Below, in pieces: positions 18,180-27,038 of a stretch of DNA of 64,000 nt. Source of the stretch: Poseidonia sp. GTDB taxonomy: Archaea > Thermoplasmatota > Poseidoniia > Poseidoniales > Poseidoniaceae. Position 1 is the stretch's first letter. Each line of letters opens with the position of its first letter. Both the position numbers and the translations under genes were made by a program. Where the stretch lies: assembly GCA_965661285.1 (NCBI GenBank), contig CBFIDD010000003.1, forward strand, positions 160,001-224,000, given 5' to 3'. The notes beneath the pieces were generated by a model. That model did no database searches. It saw nothing but the letters and a program-made list of their open reading frames with translations, and was not told the origin of the DNA.

Positions 18180-19484
18180 TCAATCCTCTTCTTGTCCGAT
18201 TTGCAGGTGTGCTTCAGCAACCGAATGGATTGATTTTCGTTTCGTGATTTCTTCCTCGTAGCATTCGTGAAGCAATTCCCGGTTGGTCAAGGTCAACACC
18301 AGCGCACCAATTGCAGGAAGAGCAAGCCCCCCAAGCGCAAGTGCCCAGGACCCAAACACATCGAACACGGGGCCCACCAACAACGGCCCAACAATGGTGC
18401 CAGCAGCCCATGCAGCACCGAAGACGCCGAAGGCAAGCCCGGGGTTACCCTCTCCAAGGGCACGGTTTGTGGCGGTGTCGATCATCGGGAGCATCGGTAT
18501 TTGTGCGGCGGCGATGAAAAATTGGAACGAGCCCAGGAGCAGAATCATGCCCAAGATGGCCATCTGACCGGACAAGATGTAGCCGACCAAGCCGACGCCC
18601 AGAAGCGAGACGACGACGAAGGACCAACCGATGAGCATGTACCTCGTCGGGCCGTTTCGGTCAACCCATCGGCCCCAAACCACCGAGCCGAGCCCCTGCA
18701 TCAAGACCATGACCAAAAGAACGCCTCCAATGGCCGCCGAAGAGAGACCGAGGGCGTCATCAAGGAAGAGAGGAACACCCGCTTCAAGCGCCCCGGTGGC
18801 CAGGGTGGTGATGGCCAACAGCACACCGACTCGAAACAAAATCCGGTCGGTGAAGAACACGCGAATCGACACCGCAGAAGACGTGTGTTCACGCGGTCCA
18901 CCCACCACTTCCCTGGACGTCCACATCAACGGGCAGACCAACCCCGTCAGCAACGCCAACACGGTGAAGGCTGAAGCCTCGCCCCAGGTGAATAAAACGC
19001 CGCCAAGCACCGGTCCGAACAGCCCACCGATGGCTGCCATGCCGAGGAGTTTGCCCGCTTGCTCACCAAATTTCGTCGGCCACAGTTGTGAGGCTGCAGC
19101 TAAGCCTGCGGTCATGATGGTGGCGCCGGATGCACCGTGCACCATCCGAGCAAAAGCGAGCAACAGAAACGGTCGGCCCACCCATTCGTTGGTCGCCACC
19201 ACGTACAGGCCGCTTGACAAGGTCAGGAGCACCAAACTGACGAACACCGTACGGCCTGCGCCAAAGCGGTCGGTGATGCGACCGGTCAGTGGGCCAAAGA
19301 GGAGCAACGGGACCGCCCAAAGCGACACTAAAAGGGTGGCCTGGGTGGCGTTGAGGTCAAACTGTGTTTGCCAGGATGGTAAAATGGGGACGATGAACGC
19401 ATAACCGAGAAAGTTGACGAAAAAGGCCAGCAGAAGCGCCAGAAAGGCTCGCTGGAGTCGTCGCTCCACCTCATGGGCATTCAC
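18180..19484 (-). CDS. MFS transporter
   Basis: About 12 TM helices; motif A GRITDRFG and its second copy GRWVDRNG; GTG start overlaps the upstream stop. Confidence 0.9.
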   Translation of the reverse strand: MNAHEVERRLQRAFLALLLAFFVNFLGYAFIVPILPSWQTQFDLNATQATLLVSLWAVPLLLFGPLTGRITDRFGAGRTVFVSLVLLTLSSGLYVVATNEWVGRPFLLLAFARMVHGASGATIMTAGLAAASQLWPTKFGEQAGKLLGMAAIGGLFGPVLGGVLFTWGEASAFTVLALLTGLVCPLMWTSREVVGGPREHTSSAVSIRVFFTDRILFRVGVLLAITTLATGALEAGVPLFLDDALGLSSAAIGGVLLVMVLMQGLGSVVWGRWVDRNGPTRYMLIGWSFVVVSLLGVGLVGYILSGQMAILGMILLLGSFQFFIAAAQIPMLPMIDTATNRALGEGNPGLAFGVFGAAWAAGTIVGPLLVGPVFDVFGSWALALGGLALPAIGALVLTLTNRELLHECYEEEITKRKSIHSVAEAHLQIGQEED

Positions 19485-20575
19485 TCTTCTTCCTCCGTTG
19501 CGGGAAGGGCATCAAGCATGTCCGCCGCAAGGGTGCTTGCATCCTCAACTTGGGTGAGCAAGGTCAAATCAGAAAGCGCTCCGGGGCGCTTCAACGCCTC
19601 CATCAAGTCCAAGAGAACCTCTGCGGTCAAGCGTGTGAGCGCCAGGGCCTCGGGGTCGATGCCCACCTGCTGGGTTTCTTCGAGCAGGGAGACGTAATCG
19701 GGTTCCTCGGAGAGAATACCCTCCATCTCCGCTTCCACTTGACGGGCAATGTCCTGTGCCTGACGTTCGAGAATGTCCTCCATCGAGGAGCGCGGGCCGG
19801 ATGCAAGGGTTGGTGTTGCCCCCTCACCGAGCGTGGTACCTTTTTTGAGGTCCTTGAAGGAAGGAACGTTGGTCGATGCCTGCTGTTGCGGGGCTTTATC
19901 GCCTTGTACGACCGGTTCAGGACCGGGGGGTGGCCCAGAGCCAACCAGCCGGTTGAGAGCCAAACGCACCATCGTCGTCATGACTTCAGCGGAGAGACCG
20001 CCCTCGTCCTCGTCGGGGTGGTCCTCGCCCATCTCTTCGCGTATGGAAGCGATGAACGTGTCATCGATGTTTCCACCCTCAACCAAGCGCTGGAGCATCG
20101 GAAGGGCCCACTGACTGTCGTTCATCGCCATGCCGACTTCAAAACGCTGACCGCCCAATCCCCCGCCGCCCGAGCCAGCGGAAACATCGGCTGGCGGCGG
20201 CACGAATTGCTTGGCAGCGTGTCGCCCGATTTGGCCGATGAGTTGGTTCATGTCAACCGGCTTTCCAATCACCTCTGCCACGCCAGCCAAAGCAGCTGAC
20301 GAAAGAAATTCCGGGGCGGTGGTGCGAGAGAGGATGACGGTTCGGGTTGCAGAACGAAAGCGCGGTTGGCCGGCCAGGGATTGGCATACGTCCATCACGC
20401 TTCCTTGCCCCCATTCGCCCTCCAACAAGAGAACATCGGGAAGGACAGCACCCGCCGTCGCTTCGGTTTGGGCAAGCGTGCTCAGCCGGGTCACTTCGTA
20501 CCCCTCACGCTCGAAGGTGTTGGCCAGAAGGTTGCGTCGACCTTCGTTTTCGTCGGCGATGATGATGCTTGGCGT
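19481..20575 (-). CDS. Receiver (REC)-like domain protein with an unknown C-terminal region; probable non-canonical start
   Basis: The frame stays open upstream of the track start and reads PSIIIADENEGRRNLLANTFEREGYEV...PDVLLLEGEW...TVILS...VIGKPV, a REC fold. Confidence 0.75.
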   Translation of the reverse strand, partial: TPSIIIADENEGRRNLLANTFEREGYEVTRLSTLAQTEATAGAVLPDVLLLEGEWGQGSVMDVCQSLAGQPRFRSATRTVILSRTTAPEFLSSAALAGVAEVIGKPVDMNQLIGQIGRHAAKQFVPPPADVSAGSGGGGLGGQRFEVGMAMNDSQWALPMLQRLVEGGNIDDTFIASIREEMGEDHPDEDEGGLSAEVMTTMVRLALNRLVGSGPPPGPEPVVQGDKAPQQQASTNVPSFKDLKKGTTLGEGATPTLASGPRSSMEDILERQAQDIARQVEAEMEGILSEEPDYVSLLEETQQVGIDPEALALTRLTAEVLLDLMEALKRPGALSDLTLLTQVEDASTLAADMLDALPATEEEE

Positions 20576-20689
20576 CCTCGTCCCCTCCGTGGTGAAAGGA
20601 GGGACTCAGCGCCTTTGAATCTCACCCCGAGCGGGTCCACCATTGGCGGTGTTTTGGTCGACCAAGCGAGGGTGCGCGTGCGTGGGCGT

Positions 20690-23143: not shown

Positions 23144-23488
23144 TCACTGGCCGATGAGCTTGTAGTCGTCGCTGAGCGGCGTTGCACCGGTCTCGACATG
23201 GACGATCTTGCCGTCTTGGTAGCGGTAGAAGGCCAGCACGGCCTCAGAGTCCGAGCCGTTGGCAAAGTGTGCGATGGAGTGGGCGACGCCAACTTCATCG
23301 TTCTCGAACAAGATGCGGTGGGCTTCGCTGCGAACCATATCGGTGCCTGCGAAGGCCATGATGTCGCTCTTGGTCATGACGGCCCCGCCGACGTGGGGGT
23401 AAAACTTGCAGTCGTCGTGAATGACAGCGTCAAGCAATTCTTTGTCTCCGGATGTAAAGGCTTCTTCGTATTTGGCTAGGATGCTCAT
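23144..23488 (-). CDS. NTF2/SnoaL-like fold protein
   Basis: 114 aa; pattern YEEAF..GD..LLD..IHDD, with terminal DGKIVHVETGATP. Confidence 0.75.
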   Translation of the reverse strand: MSILAKYEEAFTSGDKELLDAVIHDDCKFYPHVGGAVMTKSDIMAFAGTDMVRSEAHRILFENDEVGVAHSIAHFANGSDSEAVLAFYRYQDGKIVHVETGATPLSDDYKLIGQ

Positions 23489-23589
23489 GGTTCGTGGCTA
23501 GGCCGGAACCACATAATGACTTCCTCTGTTGTCTATGGAGAACGGAGGTGAAGGGAAACCTTTGAATCCCGTTTCCCAAAGTTGATTTC

Positions 23590-24582
23590 ATGAGGGTGCA
23601 CTGCCTTGGTGGCGGCTTGGTCGGCTCTTTTGTGACCCGAAAACTGTACGAAGCAGGGTTTGAGGTCCACCTGTTCGACATTGAACCGCGCGAAACACCC
23701 GCCACCTTCCATTTGGGTGATGCTGCATCCGCCGACCACAGCGGTGCGGACATCATCGTCAACATGGTCCCCGGCGACATTGGCCACGCCGTCTTGCAAG
23801 CCCTCCAACCTCACGGCCATCGCATCGTTGACCTTTCGTTCAGCGAAACCACCCCCGACCGCCTGCCCGAAGGGGCCAGCACCGTCCTGTGGGACGTTGG
23901 CATCGCTCCTGGGCTCTCCAACATGCTCGTCGCGTTGGCTCATCGAGAACTCGGCGCCCTCGACAGCGTGAGCATCAAGGTGGGCGGCAACCCTTCCCGT
24001 CCCGACGATGCCTGGTCGTACATGGCACCCTTTTCACCGCACGACGTCATCGCCGAGTACACGCGCCCCGTACGGGTTGTTCGAGACGGCACCGTCGTCA
24101 CCCTGCCCGCCATGTCAGAACTTCACAGCATCGATGCCAACGGCAGAGCCATGGAAGCCTTCCTGACCGACGGGTTGCGCTCGCTCATCAATGTGCCAGC
24201 CAGCACCATGGGTGAATACACCGTCCGTTGGCCCGGACACATCCAACGCTACCAATCCACCGACCTCGGACCCGAAAATCTTGTCGAAGCCTGGCGTTTT
24301 GACCCCACGCGCCCCGAGTTTACCTGGATGGAGGTGCGGGTTGAAGGCGGCGGCAAGACCCGTGTCTGGACGGTAGAGGATAACGGAAAGGACGGGGATT
24401 CGAGCATGGCAAGGACGACGGGCCTGGTGACCTATGCCTGCGTGGTCGCTTGGAGCCAGCACGAACTGTTCACAGAGGGCATCCATCCTCCCGAGGACCT
24501 CCCCTCTGAGGTCATTCACGACGTGATTCAAACGCTTGAGGACGAAGGCGTACGTATCGAGCATCAAACGGGGCATGAGTGA
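23590..24582 (+). CDS. Saccharopine dehydrogenase family (lysine 6-dehydrogenase-like) protein
   Basis: GGGLVG Rossmann motif, DVGIAPGLSN, EAFLTDGLRSL, SSMARTTG. Confidence 0.9.
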   Translation: MRVHCLGGGLVGSFVTRKLYEAGFEVHLFDIEPRETPATFHLGDAASADHSGADIIVNMVPGDIGHAVLQALQPHGHRIVDLSFSETTPDRLPEGASTVLWDVGIAPGLSNMLVALAHRELGALDSVSIKVGGNPSRPDDAWSYMAPFSPHDVIAEYTRPVRVVRDGTVVTLPAMSELHSIDANGRAMEAFLTDGLRSLINVPASTMGEYTVRWPGHIQRYQSTDLGPENLVEAWRFDPTRPEFTWMEVRVEGGGKTRVWTVEDNGKDGDSSMARTTGLVTYACVVAWSQHELFTEGIHPPEDLPSEVIHDVIQTLEDEGVRIEHQTGHE

Positions 24583-24644
24583 AGGTCGGCGAGGGATGAT
24601 TTAGAAGCGGGAACAAATAAGAACTAAACCATTAACCCCGGCCC

Positions 24645-25187
24645 ATGAAGGGCATTGTTTTCCGAGAGTTCATGGAGATGGTTGAGTCCACGTTTGGCGA
24701 TGAAATGACGGAAAAATTGGTTCAAGACAACGACCTGGTAAGCGGCGGAGTCTACACCGCCGTTGGGACGTACGACCACCAAGAACTCGTGGCGATGGCC
24801 ATCACACTCTCAAAAGAGACCGACTTACCCGTGGAGGCTCTTGTCGAGGCGTTTGGAAACTATTTGTTCGGGCGTTTCTTGGAGTTGTTCCCTGTGTTCT
24901 TTGATCACAAAACCTCATTTGAATTCCTCGACACCATCCATGATGTGGTTCACGTTGAAGTTTTGAAGCTTTACCCCGAAGCAACCCTTCCCGATTTCGT
25001 CAGTGAAATCAAAGACGACGGAAGAACCCTGCACTTTGAGTATCACAGCCCGAGGCATTTCGCCGATTTAGCAGTTGGACTGATGAAAGGCGCGTTTGAC
25101 CACTGGAACGAAACGGTGGAGATGACACGGGAAGACAAGGTCGTTGATGGAAATCAAGTCACCTTGTTCATCTGCACGTTGGTCTGA
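24645..25187 (+). CDS. H-NOX (heme NO-binding, HNOB) domain protein
   Basis: N-terminus MKGIVF, YTAVGTYD, proximal-His segment HVEVLKLYP, YxSxR signature YHSPR. Confidence 0.93.
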   Translation: MKGIVFREFMEMVESTFGDEMTEKLVQDNDLVSGGVYTAVGTYDHQELVAMAITLSKETDLPVEALVEAFGNYLFGRFLELFPVFFDHKTSFEFLDTIHDVVHVEVLKLYPEATLPDFVSEIKDDGRTLHFEYHSPRHFADLAVGLMKGAFDHWNETVEMTREDKVVDGNQVTLFICTLV

Positions 25188-25202
25188 TGACGAGGACTCG
25201 CG

Positions 25203-25829
25203 ATGGATTTCAAAGAACTGGCAAAAATCGCCGCTGCAAGAAAAAAAGCATCAACCTCTACGCCCGAAGAGGAGATTCAACGCCTCAAGAAGACCGTTGA
25301 GCGGGAAAAAGCAGCACGGCGACAAGCTGAGGAAACCATTGAGGAGAGTTCGCGCCGTTTGTACCTGGCCAACCAAGAAGCCGCTGCATTGAACAAGGAA
25401 CTGGAATCAACCCTTCAAGACCTCAACGAGACACTGGGGGCCCTCACCAGTGCGAAAGCAAAACGAATTGCGACGTTCATCACATTGGTGCTGGCAACCT
25501 TTCTGTTCTTTCTCACCGAGTTTGCACTCGAGCCAATTCTTGAAGAAAAAATAGAGAGTAGTTTCTTCCTTATTCTCGCCAAGGGTATGATTTTTGCGAC
25601 GCTCATTCCTGTTGAGATCATTGGCTCACGTCTCGCAGAGCGAAATCTTACCGAGTCAGGCAAAATCAACGAATCGATTTACAGGGATTTACTCCTCGCT
25701 GCCTATGAGGATGGCATCATCACAGAAATGGAACGCACATTGCTCAATTCATCTGCTCGACAACTCGGTATCAACAAAACACAAGCAAAACGGATTGAAC
25801 AAGAACTTGCTGATGGGCAAGCGCAATGA
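25203..25829 (+). CDS. H-NOX-associated coiled-coil membrane protein with TerB-like C-terminus
   Basis: N-terminal EREKAARRQAEETIEESSRRLYLANQ helix, two TM helices, C-terminal AYEDGIITEMERTLL...LGI. Confidence 0.75.
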   Translation: MDFKELAKIAAARKKASTSTPEEEIQRLKKTVEREKAARRQAEETIEESSRRLYLANQEAAALNKELESTLQDLNETLGALTSAKAKRIATFITLVLATFLFFLTEFALEPILEEKIESSFFLILAKGMIFATLIPVEIIGSRLAERNLTESGKINESIYRDLLLAAYEDGIITEMERTLLNSSARQLGINKTQAKRIEQELADGQAQ

Positions 25830-26092
25830 TGGGACGAAGGCGACCACATCCACCTGACTTCAAAGCGGGAGGCTCGTGCCGTGGTCACAGAAGGCAACTC
25901 TTGAGGCATTAATCCGAAGAGGACGGAAAAATCTTCATGATAATTCCGTGAGAGAGAACAGCCATTCCTGCCTCGGCATCGGACGACATTCTGTCCAAGT
26001 CCAGGCTGCTCAGGCAACGCATCGAGGCGCGAAACAACCCTCCACCACCGCATGCCGCACCTCGCAAGACAGCATCCCCCCATCGGGACGAA

Positions 26093-26356
26093 ATGGTGGT
26101 GGTGGTTGCTGAGAAACCAAAGCGAAGCCCATTCCTAACCCTCGCTTATGCGACGGTCGCGTTGATCGTGTTCAATCTCCCGTATTTTCTGTATCAAGCC
26201 AACGCTGAACCAGACGTCAACTATCCGTTTGCTGGATTTGATGAAGCCATCATCACGCTGATTTGCTTCGTCCCCCTGATGATCGTCTCGGTGGTTTTTT
26301 GGTGGTCTGCAGTCCTTCATATCATCATTCAACTGGTCAGCCGTGCACGCCGTTGA
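26093..26356 (+). CDS. Small membrane protein (2 TM)
   Basis: 87 aa with two hydrophobic segments; exact start uncertain. Confidence 0.55.
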   Translation: MVVVVAEKPKRSPFLTLAYATVALIVFNLPYFLYQANAEPDVNYPFAGFDEAIITLICFVPLMIVSVVFWWSAVLHIIIQLVSRARR

Positions 26357-26614
26357 CTCTGATGTCTACGTGTTCAACGGTAGGGTTGTGAAGGGCCCAC
26401 TGAGAGCCTTTGTAAACGGGTAAATTGTACATATGGGTGTTTCGTTCTTGTGGGCGAGCACCTTGAGTCGGAGGAATTCAAGCGCTGCATGAAGAGAGAG
26501 AAGCAGTGGGTTGAGGGAAATACTGTGGTGGGTTTTCCTTGAGATGCGATGAATGTGATAAATCTCCCGTGCGTCGGAAGAACAGATATAAACAAGAAAT
26601 GAGAAGTACGTCTC

Positions 26615-26878
26615 ATGTTCTCAAGCTTAATTCTTATTTTTGAGGAATATCCGGCGCTTTTGACCATCCTTTCTGGGATGGTGATTCTCGGAGCGATCGG
26701 GTTCGTTCTGATGATGGCCTTTAACATCAAATCCTTCCTGACTTACCGAAAACGGAAAGCCGATGACAAAAATGAAGAAGTGGAAAAGGAGCATTCAACA
26801 CTCTTTTGGGCCGTTGATGGGTTTTTCACATTCGCCTTATCTTTGGACTTCCTGTCGATTTTTCTCATTTTAATTTAG
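26615..26878 (+). CDS. Small membrane protein in an AT-rich segment
   Basis: 87 aa, TM-charged loop-TM layout; TATAAA about 25 bp upstream. Confidence 0.6.
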   Translation: MFSSLILIFEEYPALLTILSGMVILGAIGFVLMMAFNIKSFLTYRKRKADDKNEEVEKEHSTLFWAVDGFFTFALSLDFLSIFLILI

Positions 26879-27038
26879 AATACGACCCACTGCAAACCGT
26901 TGTGAACGTCATATCTGTGCACAAGGGCAACCCTCGTAGCCGTATACATCTACAACCGTACCCTAGAGTACACCCCCATACACAAGGGCCTCCCTCGTGG
27001 AGGCTGAGTTTCGATTCGGGTTCAGGGATGATGCACCG

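Follow-up and report, generated by a model that had tools for sequence, protein, structure and literature searches.

A two-gene H-NOX operon with a membrane-bound, probably kinase-free output in a marine archaeon of the Poseidoniaceae

H-NOX signalling is known from bacteria, in which the sensor works with kinases or c-di-GMP enzymes or is fused to chemoreceptors, and from animal guanylate cyclase. In the bacterial systems, H-NOX with bound nitric oxide (NO) controls its partner by direct contact, according to two reports (PMC7108781, PMC8846402). Here we analyzed a window of 64,000 nucleotides from an assembly of Poseidonia sp. (GenBank GCA_965661285.1, contig CBFIDD010000003.1, positions 160,001 to 224,000 of the forward strand; by "window" we mean this whole stretch of DNA), in which a stand-alone H-NOX gene is followed by a gene for a protein without a recognizable enzymatic domain. 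We consider it probable that the two genes form a kinase-free H-NOX operon, in which H-NOX acts through an N-terminal helix of the partner and the output takes place in the membrane. The features that bear on this reading are listed below, in coordinates of the window.

24645..25187, forward strand: stand-alone H-NOX gene (ORF1, for open reading frame 1), 180 aa, Pfam HNOB, with H103 and Y133/S135/R137
25188..25202, forward strand: intergenic spacer of 15 bp, the operon junction, with a Shine-Dalgarno-like GAGGA 6 nt before the partner ATG
25203..25829, forward strand: partner gene (ORF2), 208 aa, no known family by ORF call and Pfam/NCBIfam scans
25254..25388, forward strand: H-NOX-associated N-terminal helix, partner residues 18-62, ..RL.R.VEREKAAR..AE.TIEESSRRLYLANQ.., delimited with a hidden Markov model (HMM) of archaeal partners
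25389..25466, forward strand: coiled-coil segment, residues 63-88, continuous with the N-terminal helix and the first transmembrane helix (TM1), ending in the K/R-rich juxtamembrane AKAKR
25467..25529, forward strand: TM1, residues 89-109, from hydropathy and the partner alignment A1, with invariant T94, L101, E106 and F107
25530..25562, forward strand: short acidic loop, residues 110-120, EPILEEKIESS, with E114 invariant in A1, predicted to lie outside
25563..25622, forward strand: second transmembrane helix (TM2), residues 121-140, from A1, the structural model and hydropathy, with invariant K127, L134 and P136
25656..25826, forward strand: C-terminal three-helix domain, residues 152-208, ..LLLAAYEDGIITEMERTLL..QLGI.., with invariant L164, D170, E177 and G189

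A preliminary description, made from the letters of the window, had proposed that the first gene encodes a complete stand-alone H-NOX with the motifs HVEVLKLYP and YHSPR, and our searches agree. Residues 2-161 of ORF1 match positions 1-162 of the 163 in the Pfam HNOB profile (PF07700; E 4.7e-38, 131.1 bits against a cut-off of 25.5), and its solved relatives are stand-alone H-NOX proteins (6ocv/6wqe, E 9.5e-34; 6bde, 1.1e-32; 4u99, 1.6e-17). H103, in the context VVHVEVLKLYP, lines up with the His of the IHVEV/IHLEV segment in 6ocv, 6bde and 2kii, which we take to be the proximal heme ligand. The heme-propionate motif Y133-x-S135-x-R137 aligns with the equivalent residues of solved H-NOX structures, and its three named residues are invariant in an alignment of 18 sequences (A2).

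That the protein might sense O2, CO or redox state instead of NO is, in our estimate, quite unlikely. Its sequence gives no certain ligand preference, the host archaea inhabit oxic surface water, and some H-NOX proteins sense redox through Cys/Zn sites, as stated in PMC7108781. However, C177 is the sole Cys of ORF1, and a Cys-rich (Cys3) zinc site is therefore impossible. By counting, the residue five positions past R137 is a Leu (L142) and not a Tyr; we take this to be the place of the distal Tyr in the O2-binding H-NOX of Thermoanaerobacter. The closest solved relatives, 6ocv/6wqe and 4u99, are presumably NO sensors.

Two further archaeal H-NOX genes form a divergent subclade, 47-51% identical to the gene of the window (L020 1498-2037, on G084:C363, and L021 4-483, on G022:C14). 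In both, the His stands one position earlier (FHQLEV, against VHVEV) and the usual His column holds a Gln. One of these genes has no adjacent partner, and the other has a long partner of 308 aa.

The second gene fits the preliminary description as well: a protein of 208 aa, encoded 15 bp downstream, with a coiled coil and two transmembrane helices and with no HisKA, HATPase, GGDEF or EAL motif. No Pfam or NCBIfam family was assigned to ORF2 at E<=0.001; HisKA, HATPase_c, GGDEF and EAL were not found in it, nor did Pfam scans detect HAMP or MCP signalling domains, and none of the 29 members of A1 had a HisKA or HATPase_c match in Pfam at E<=5. The protein has 147 homologues at E<=0.001, and among the matches listed a precomputed Pfam domain was present in 0 of 120. 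Kyte-Doolittle hydropathy (window of 19 residues) peaks at 2.09 near residue 98 and at 2.06 near residue 131. The AlphaFold2 model, from a 29-sequence alignment, is all-helical (mean pLDDT 83.1, pTM 0.47), with helices at 3-16, 21-116 (a very long one), 120-151, 154-170, 175-187 and 192-207. Lys and Arg residues lie on both outer flanks of the hairpin and the 11-residue loop is acidic (4 D/E against 1 K/R), so that by the positive-inside rule the hairpin is predicted to be N-in/C-in. The N-terminal helix and the tail would then both be cytoplasmic, on the side of H-NOX. The invariant residues of A1 cluster in the hairpin (loop included) and in the tail, and in distant homologues the coiled-coil segment (63-88) is conserved together with the hairpin. 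The kinase-less membrane output of the preliminary description is thus confirmed: the partner has no kinase domain and carries a hairpin of two transmembrane helices. A CorA-like reading of the long helix and the two transmembrane helices was dropped, as it had support from neither sequence nor fold.

The link between the two proteins is the N-terminal helix of the partner. We built an HMM solely from archaeal partner residues 18-62 and searched it over every ORF of 60 aa or more in 80 H-NOX loci, 75 of them bacterial and 5 archaeal, on one-genome-per-species contigs. In 69 of the 75 bacterial loci the best match was N-terminal in the ORF that adjoins H-NOX, with a domain E<1e-3 (1e-14 to 1e-4), and no other ORF matched below E 3. 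Six bacterial loci were missed: two stop right after H-NOX (L072, L122), two have weak matches (L062, 0.004; L112, 0.03), in L100 the called ORF of the kinase does not include the helix, and L119 has no co-oriented neighbour. We scanned 28 of the bacterial neighbours, finding HisKA and/or HATPase_c in 25, PAS-GGDEF-EAL in one (L108), GAF only in one, and nothing in one. The kinases are mostly hybrids that carry REC and, in some cases, Hpt, PAS or GAF, and Pfam did not annotate the N-terminal helix in any of these bacterial neighbours.

Because coiled coils resemble one another, and because the partner profile matches tropomyosin in PDB at E 6.9e-07, we ran a whole-genome control, taking 13 aligned archaeal helices (A3) as the query and five bacterial genomes, complete or draft and 4.2-7.9 Mb in size, as the target. 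There were seven matches at E<=5.4e-4, the next being at 0.19, and all seven sit in a gene adjoining one of the seven PF07700 genes of these five genomes. In the genome of the window the helix profile has the partner as its sole match (6e-22; next 0.017), and the GAF-like paralogues of the partner, which have a fused sensor domain, do not carry the helix. By these matches, residues ~25-58 of ORF2 are homologous to the N-terminal helix of the kinase or c-di-GMP enzyme adjacent to H-NOX in bacteria, part of the helix score being generic to coiled-coil-like helices. The residues L28, R34, E35, A38, E43, E47, S50 and R51 of the archaeal helix are invariant. The preliminary description had given for such partners a motif ERER.AR..AE..LE.KS.ELY..NQ and had suggested that the archaeal protein kept this docking helix. 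The bacterial H-NOX neighbours do carry the motif, which is real and specific since the whole-genome control places every match beside H-NOX, and at the level of sequence the proposal that the helix was kept is supported.

A predicted complex of H-NOX and partner residues 1-88 scored 0.46 (0.51, 0.46 and 0.39 in the three runs), and the best of three controls scored 0.00. The runs share at least 96% of their contacts, and the pLDDT of the partner is at least 81. Of 157 solved complexes 116 reached the mark used, as did 2 of 215 mismatched pairs; at scores <=0.60, just 18 of the 157 solved complexes and both passing mismatches did so. These counts are roughly valid here, as our own alignments were supplied to the prediction. 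The modelling of the pair, which the preliminary description had proposed, thus yields weak support for docking of the helix to H-NOX.

In the mechanism that we propose, the heme of the cytoplasmic H-NOX would bind a diatomic gas, most likely NO, and change conformation. H-NOX would contact the N-terminal helix of the partner as bacterial H-NOX contacts HnoK, and the change could travel along the continuous helix 21-116, probably a dimeric coiled coil, to the hairpin and the C-terminal tail. The response would be a membrane event, for example a change in oligomerization, in ion permeability or in docking to a further membrane protein. The output would be neither phosphorylation nor c-di-GMP; in place of an enzyme, the partner continues into the hairpin and the tail. 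A non-kinase output is plausible in this host, as matches to HisKA, GGDEF or MCPsignal were not found in its genome (93% complete).

Searches with the partner family indicate that the hairpin occurs well beyond H-NOX operons. An exhaustive profile search with A1 returned 1187 proteins at E<=1e-3, 100 at <=1e-10 and 14 at <=1e-30, and the matches split into two modules, one over profile positions ~130-245 (end of the coiled coil and hairpin) and one over ~245-303 (tail). Matches to the hairpin module reach E 1e-19 to 1e-9 over positions 130-245 of the partner-family profile. We scanned 14 of them: in 11 the module is C-terminal, behind TPR in five, REC and PAS in three, and REC, PAS and GAF in one each, and the other three, of ~170-185 aa, stand alone and have no Pfam domain. 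These proteins have in common the pattern ..ELT.A+..+KA.. / LF..SE...EP..E / K..IAL.LKP.E..vE, with aligned invariant E, P, K and P, and the K...P.E pattern of TM2 is found also in distant proteins with the module. That the same module ends REC-PAS, PAS, TPR and GAF proteins argues that the hairpin itself is an output device, and we know of no described function for it. We tentatively put forward, as a possibility that we hold well short of probable, that the coiled coil and two-TM hairpin represent an unrecognized class of output or transducer that acts within the membrane, serves many inputs (receiver, PAS, TPR, GAF) and has been tied to H-NOX by a portable docking helix in Poseidoniaceae. 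Members of such a class could be gated hairpins that oligomerize and conduct ions, or transducers that dock another membrane protein.

Residues 62-150 were also compared with the ESM Atlas, where the best match (0.87; values below 0.9 serve as a lead only) was a Bacteroidota cluster of 183-aa proteins automatically named "Holin of 3TMs". Pfam GTA_holin_3TM matches 2 of the 29 members of A1, with a best E of 0.18. The stand-alone bacterial hairpin proteins of ~180 aa (P0261 and relatives, alignment A4) have a conserved N-terminal segment of their own, ..LIT.VSDRLQNKLN... In a sample of 151 Bacteroidota genomes a match was found in five, over the hairpin in one of them, too few for an analysis of genomic context; in the same sample the segment also starts ORFs of 250-355 aa without the hairpin (loci L169-L173). 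By analogy with the H-NOX helix, it may be a second portable adaptor helix.

The TerB-like nature of the tail, which the preliminary description had proposed, is borne out in part. Direct Pfam matches are below threshold (TerB, PF05099, positions 83-117 of 118, E 0.26, 12 bits against a cut-off of 24.4; DUF533, E 0.19), each of these two families is matched by 3 of the 29 family members, with a best E of 0.04 for TerB, and the Tic110 structure 4bm5 is matched at E 0.22; the link is mostly through intermediate proteins. The tail segment (profile ~245-303) recurs two to eight times in longer proteins, and 8 of the 12 multi-repeat proteins scanned match Pfam TerB at E<=0.01, several of them also DUF533, Tic110 or ENT. 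Residues D170-G171...E177 fit what we take to be the acidic motif of TerB, and among structures the tail matches the TerB-family 2ou3 (Z 7.0) and the ENT domain 5zx1 (Z 6.4), both inside the noise band. The most apt description of the tail is a single repeat unit of putative TerB type that is not a family member by the Pfam standard.

The tail could be the real effector, binding a metal or small ligand or recruiting a protein, with the hairpin as an anchor and dimerization device. We regard this as unlikely, despite the four invariant tail residues, the recurrence of the repeat in many proteins annotated as TerB, DUF533 or Tic110, and the retention of the tail in the Poseidoniales paralogues and in the GAF protein P0254. 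The 13 distant hairpin proteins scanned besides P0254 end straight after TM2, without a TerB-like tail, so the hairpin can be terminal alone. Furthermore, conservation of the hairpin equals or exceeds that of the tail, and its residues E106, K127 and P136, charged positions within the membrane among them, go beyond the needs of an anchor.

Since the partner has no catalytic domain, it might instead be a mere membrane tether or scaffold for H-NOX, the signal passing to a third protein. The genome has three receiver-domain matches, one of them 4 kb upstream within the window, and these could provide such a protein. We nevertheless find this improbable: we detected no HisKA match in the genome (93% complete), the bacterial version of the helix sits directly on the regulated enzyme, and the hairpin module takes the place of an output domain in other signalling proteins. 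The receiver match upstream of H-NOX (E 1.3e-8) lies at the N-terminus of an ORF of ~370 aa (window ~19481-20600, reverse strand) that otherwise belongs to no known family; where the phospho-acceptor normally stands it seems to have Glu (LLLEGE), which suggests a pseudo-receiver.

A survey of archaeal neighbourhoods, as the preliminary description had proposed, indicated that the pair is conserved. Of 201 genomes sampled from the order, 17 contained PF07700; they belong to a single family (f1, 16 of 99; f2, 0 of 2; f3, 0 of 99) and span 5 of 24 genera; among genomes at least 90% complete it was found in 6 of 61. These 17 genomes contain 20 places with H-NOX, and in 19 of them a partner homologue lies immediately 3' on the same strand. 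Three more partner copies are found at contig ends. The partner is under purifying selection (dN/dS 0.07-0.20 in five pairs with usable dS, the others being saturated), as is H-NOX (0.03-0.11 in three pairs with unsaturated dS, the remaining pairs being saturated), and it almost always adjoins H-NOX in the lineage. We therefore give very little credence to the idea that the operon is a decaying, functionless remnant of a transferred bacterial H-NOX/kinase pair. Its distribution is patchy (the 17 of 201 genomes) and one adjacent partner copy (G070:C14) is split into two frames, but the operon has been kept across five genera at 47-78% identity with its invariant residues, and the architecture of the partner is new and complete rather than that of a truncated kinase.

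Partners in genus g5 measure 419-434 aa, with the same core behind a long P/A-rich N-terminal extension. The extension (L038 1456-2712, reverse strand; L039 829-2085, forward strand; L005 177-1478, reverse strand) has ~200 residues with repeated ..VAPVPSL.DLFGKA.. units and diverges fast, partners being 65% identical where the H-NOX proteins are 97% identical. A partner of 211 aa with no H-NOX nearby (L136 1931-2566, on G050:C3) has a degenerate helix, with ..TFKKSYEEL.. in place of ..TIEESSRRLY...

In a maximum likelihood tree of 99 H-NOX rows, the 24 archaeal ones are separated from the 75 bacterial ones by a branch with SH-aLRT 100. Because the tree is unrooted and its bacterial rows were picked as top matches of the archaeal query, no donor can be named. 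The H-NOX of the window is sister to that of a genome from another genus (G118; 85% identity, 78% for the partner), and in eight congeneric genomes the H-NOX copies are 64-70% and the partners 47-54% identical to those of the window. Taken with a variable insertion site (see below), this pattern suggests movement of the operon within the family as well. The horizontal acquisition put forward in the preliminary description is supported by the patchy distribution, the single archaeal clade, the low GC content and the variable insertion site. Most likely, the operon was acquired once from bacteria, its kinase part was replaced, and it then moved within the family.

The host genome is archaeal, of Poseidoniaceae type (Marine Group II). 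The assembly has 8 contigs and 1.98 Mb, with a completeness of 93% and a contamination of 0.08%, and it encodes Ribosomal_S3Ae, which among control genomes was present only in the four archaeal ones. The nearest named relatives of the H-NOX are from a "Candidatus Poseidoniaceae archaeon" (66% identity) and an "archaeon" (67%), with bacterial ones next (47-53%), and the named relatives of the operon belong to metagenome-assembled genomes (MAGs) of Poseidoniaceae/Poseidonia. Two further features frame the operon:

24583..24644, forward strand: 62-bp spacer 5' of the H-NOX gene, with the AT-rich stretch ACAAATAAGAAC at 24612-24623
24645..26878, no strand: low-GC stretch between conserved archaeal genes

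As read from the sequence, ACAAATAAGAAC lies ~22-33 nt before the H-NOX ATG and is possibly an archaeal TATA-like promoter element. Within the low-GC stretch the GC content is 0.494 in H-NOX, 0.475 in the partner, 0.504 in orf87a and 0.413 in orf87b, with 0.57 in the 263-bp spacer 25830-26092; the genome has 0.566 and the flanking genes 0.57-0.61. On the left flank (TrxR-SnoaL-SDH-like), the SDH-like gene just 5' of H-NOX is present in 34 of 41 genomes of the genus. We examined 29 loci of other congeneric genomes, and in 25 of them the flank recurs, with SnoaL adjoining the SDH-like gene. Neither H-NOX nor the partner was behind the SDH-like block in any of these 29 loci, and the slot 3' of the SDH-like gene had different content in all 29, so that it represents a variable insertion site; in G166, for example, a PhoX gene lies directly 3' of the block.

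Contigs from three different studies bridge the SDH-like gene and H-NOX (X6 23508-26389, X3 24218-26067, X9 23441-24717), and the junction of H-NOX and partner is bridged by contigs in all four independent runs. The region is not a bacterial/archaeal chimera, and the contig is archaeal. Mis-assembly of a bacterial segment into an archaeal contig, a concern raised by the low GC of the operon and by the breaks in the contigs of four runs at ~26.4 and 26.96 kb, is extremely improbable: besides the bridging contigs and the SDH-like gene shared across the genus, the operon is present in 17 genomes and in named Poseidoniaceae MAGs, and the archaeal H-NOX rows form a separate clade.

To the right of the operon, the segment at window 26367-26962 is bounded on either side by breaks, with loose ends, in the contigs of all four independent runs. 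Depth over this segment is 2-4x that of the flanks in X3 and X6, slightly raised in X7 and not raised in X9, and it contains an 87-aa membrane ORF (26615-26878, GC 0.413). Possible identities of the segment are a repeat, a mobile piece and a hypervariable spot.

Several observations weigh against a kinase-free operon with its output in the membrane, in addition to the tropomyosin match and the generic share of the helix score. The heme binding and ligand preference of ORF1 are putative, and its NO selectivity leans on the mapping of L142 to the distal Tyr. For the predicted complex, the note that accompanies the tool states that weak support is more often wrong unless the interaction was likely beforehand. 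Foldseek matched the partner model to nothing in PDB at E<=0.001, and in a wide VIA-align search the best Z was 7.4, and every row fell inside the band that helical hairpins are expected to give; MscS transmembrane hairpins (3udc, 7dlu), the TerB-family 2ou3 and ENT 5zx1 were among these rows, none standing out. No Pfam or NCBIfam model covers the hairpin module (for NCBIfam, in nine proteins, solely the PAS, REC and TPR parts were covered), and either the hairpin or the TerB-like tail may be the effector. One of the 20 H-NOX places has no partner (G084:C363) and one partner copy has no H-NOX (G050:C3). Among the 24 runs listed for the stretch none was an RNA run, and co-transcription of H-NOX and partner is putative, suggested by their spacing. 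Finally, no contig of the four independent runs spans 26383-26959, the right junction of the island.

Our search also identified a paralogue of the partner elsewhere in the genome (G000:C3:98082-99092, 336 aa; also L133, L134, L135 and L037). It consists of a sensor-like N-terminal domain of ~150 aa, a coiled coil, the same two-TM hairpin and a TerB-like tail, and its relative P0254 matches Pfam GAF. Directly 3' of the paralogue is a type-1 rhodopsin gene (338-385 aa; Bac_rhodopsin E 2.1e-34), here at G000:C3:99098-100120. The paralogue was found in 5 of the 201 genomes of the order, all five of which also have H-NOX and a rhodopsin adjoining the paralogue; in G188 the paralogue-rhodopsin pair lies beside the H-NOX operon and is divergently transcribed. 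The genome of the window has a second rhodopsin (G000:C4:173476-174147; L132, 285 aa). By counting along helix C, the paralogue-linked rhodopsins have D..T......T (C in genus g5) and the 285-aa one has D..T......K; neither has a carboxylate at what we take to be the proton-donor site of proton pumps. As the GAF-like paralogue stands directly before a second, non-canonical rhodopsin, one kinase-free transducer family may serve both NO and light, and if so, abundant ocean archaea may sense both without kinases.

These results add an archaeal H-NOX system, in a group of archaea that is highly abundant in the surface ocean. Public databases annotate the protein merely as "heme NO-binding domain-containing protein", and among the matches listed in full-text literature searches, none dealt with archaeal H-NOX, judged by title and start of abstract, and none joined a Marine Group II term with H-NOX. 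By the computed evidence, the N-terminal helix of ~40 residues is portable and marks H-NOX partners specifically, in different phyla and domains; it offers a simple finder of H-NOX targets and a defined surface for mutation. The putative enzyme-free output also points to an unnamed two-TM module that ends REC-PAS, PAS, TPR and GAF proteins. Should the signal be NO produced by phytoplankton or by nitrite photolysis, the operon would be a route for Marine Group II to sense its biological surroundings.

The closest described system is HnoX-HnoK of Shewanella oneidensis, Vibrio cholerae and Caulobacter, which likewise has a stand-alone H-NOX followed by its partner in an operon, the partner starting with the same helix. 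In contrast to HnoK, the archaeal partner lacks HisKA, HATPase_c, receiver and Hpt, its helix leading instead into a coiled coil and the two-TM hairpin; it is predicted to be inserted in the membrane, and its host genome has no HisKA match. The c-di-GMP enzymes associated with H-NOX (HaCE of Shewanella woodyi, and Hnox1-Lpg1057 of Legionella) also represent adjacent partners that are not kinases, and the bacterial locus L108 has the helix before PAS-GGDEF-EAL; however, neither GGDEF nor EAL was found in the archaeal partner or in its genome.

Sensory rhodopsin transducers (Htr) and chemoreceptors resemble the partner, by analogy only, in relaying signals without an enzyme through a dimer-type coiled coil and two transmembrane helices. 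In five of five genomes, moreover, a rhodopsin gene directly follows a paralogue of the partner. Unlike them, the partner has no HAMP or MCP domain, and its cytoplasmic coiled coil comes before, not after, the transmembrane hairpin. With the TerB/DUF533/Tic110 repeat it shares its last ~55 residues, which match the C-terminal third of the TerB model, although this tail is one repeat unit, below threshold and with no ter-operon context. The proteins with the hairpin module (REC-PAS, PAS, TPR, GAF and the stand-alone ones of ~180 aa) have the same juxtamembrane/TM1/loop/TM2 pattern as the partner, but carry a fused sensor or receiver, or an N-terminal helix of their own, in place of the H-NOX-type helix, and among the 14 scanned P0254 alone shares the TerB-like tail.

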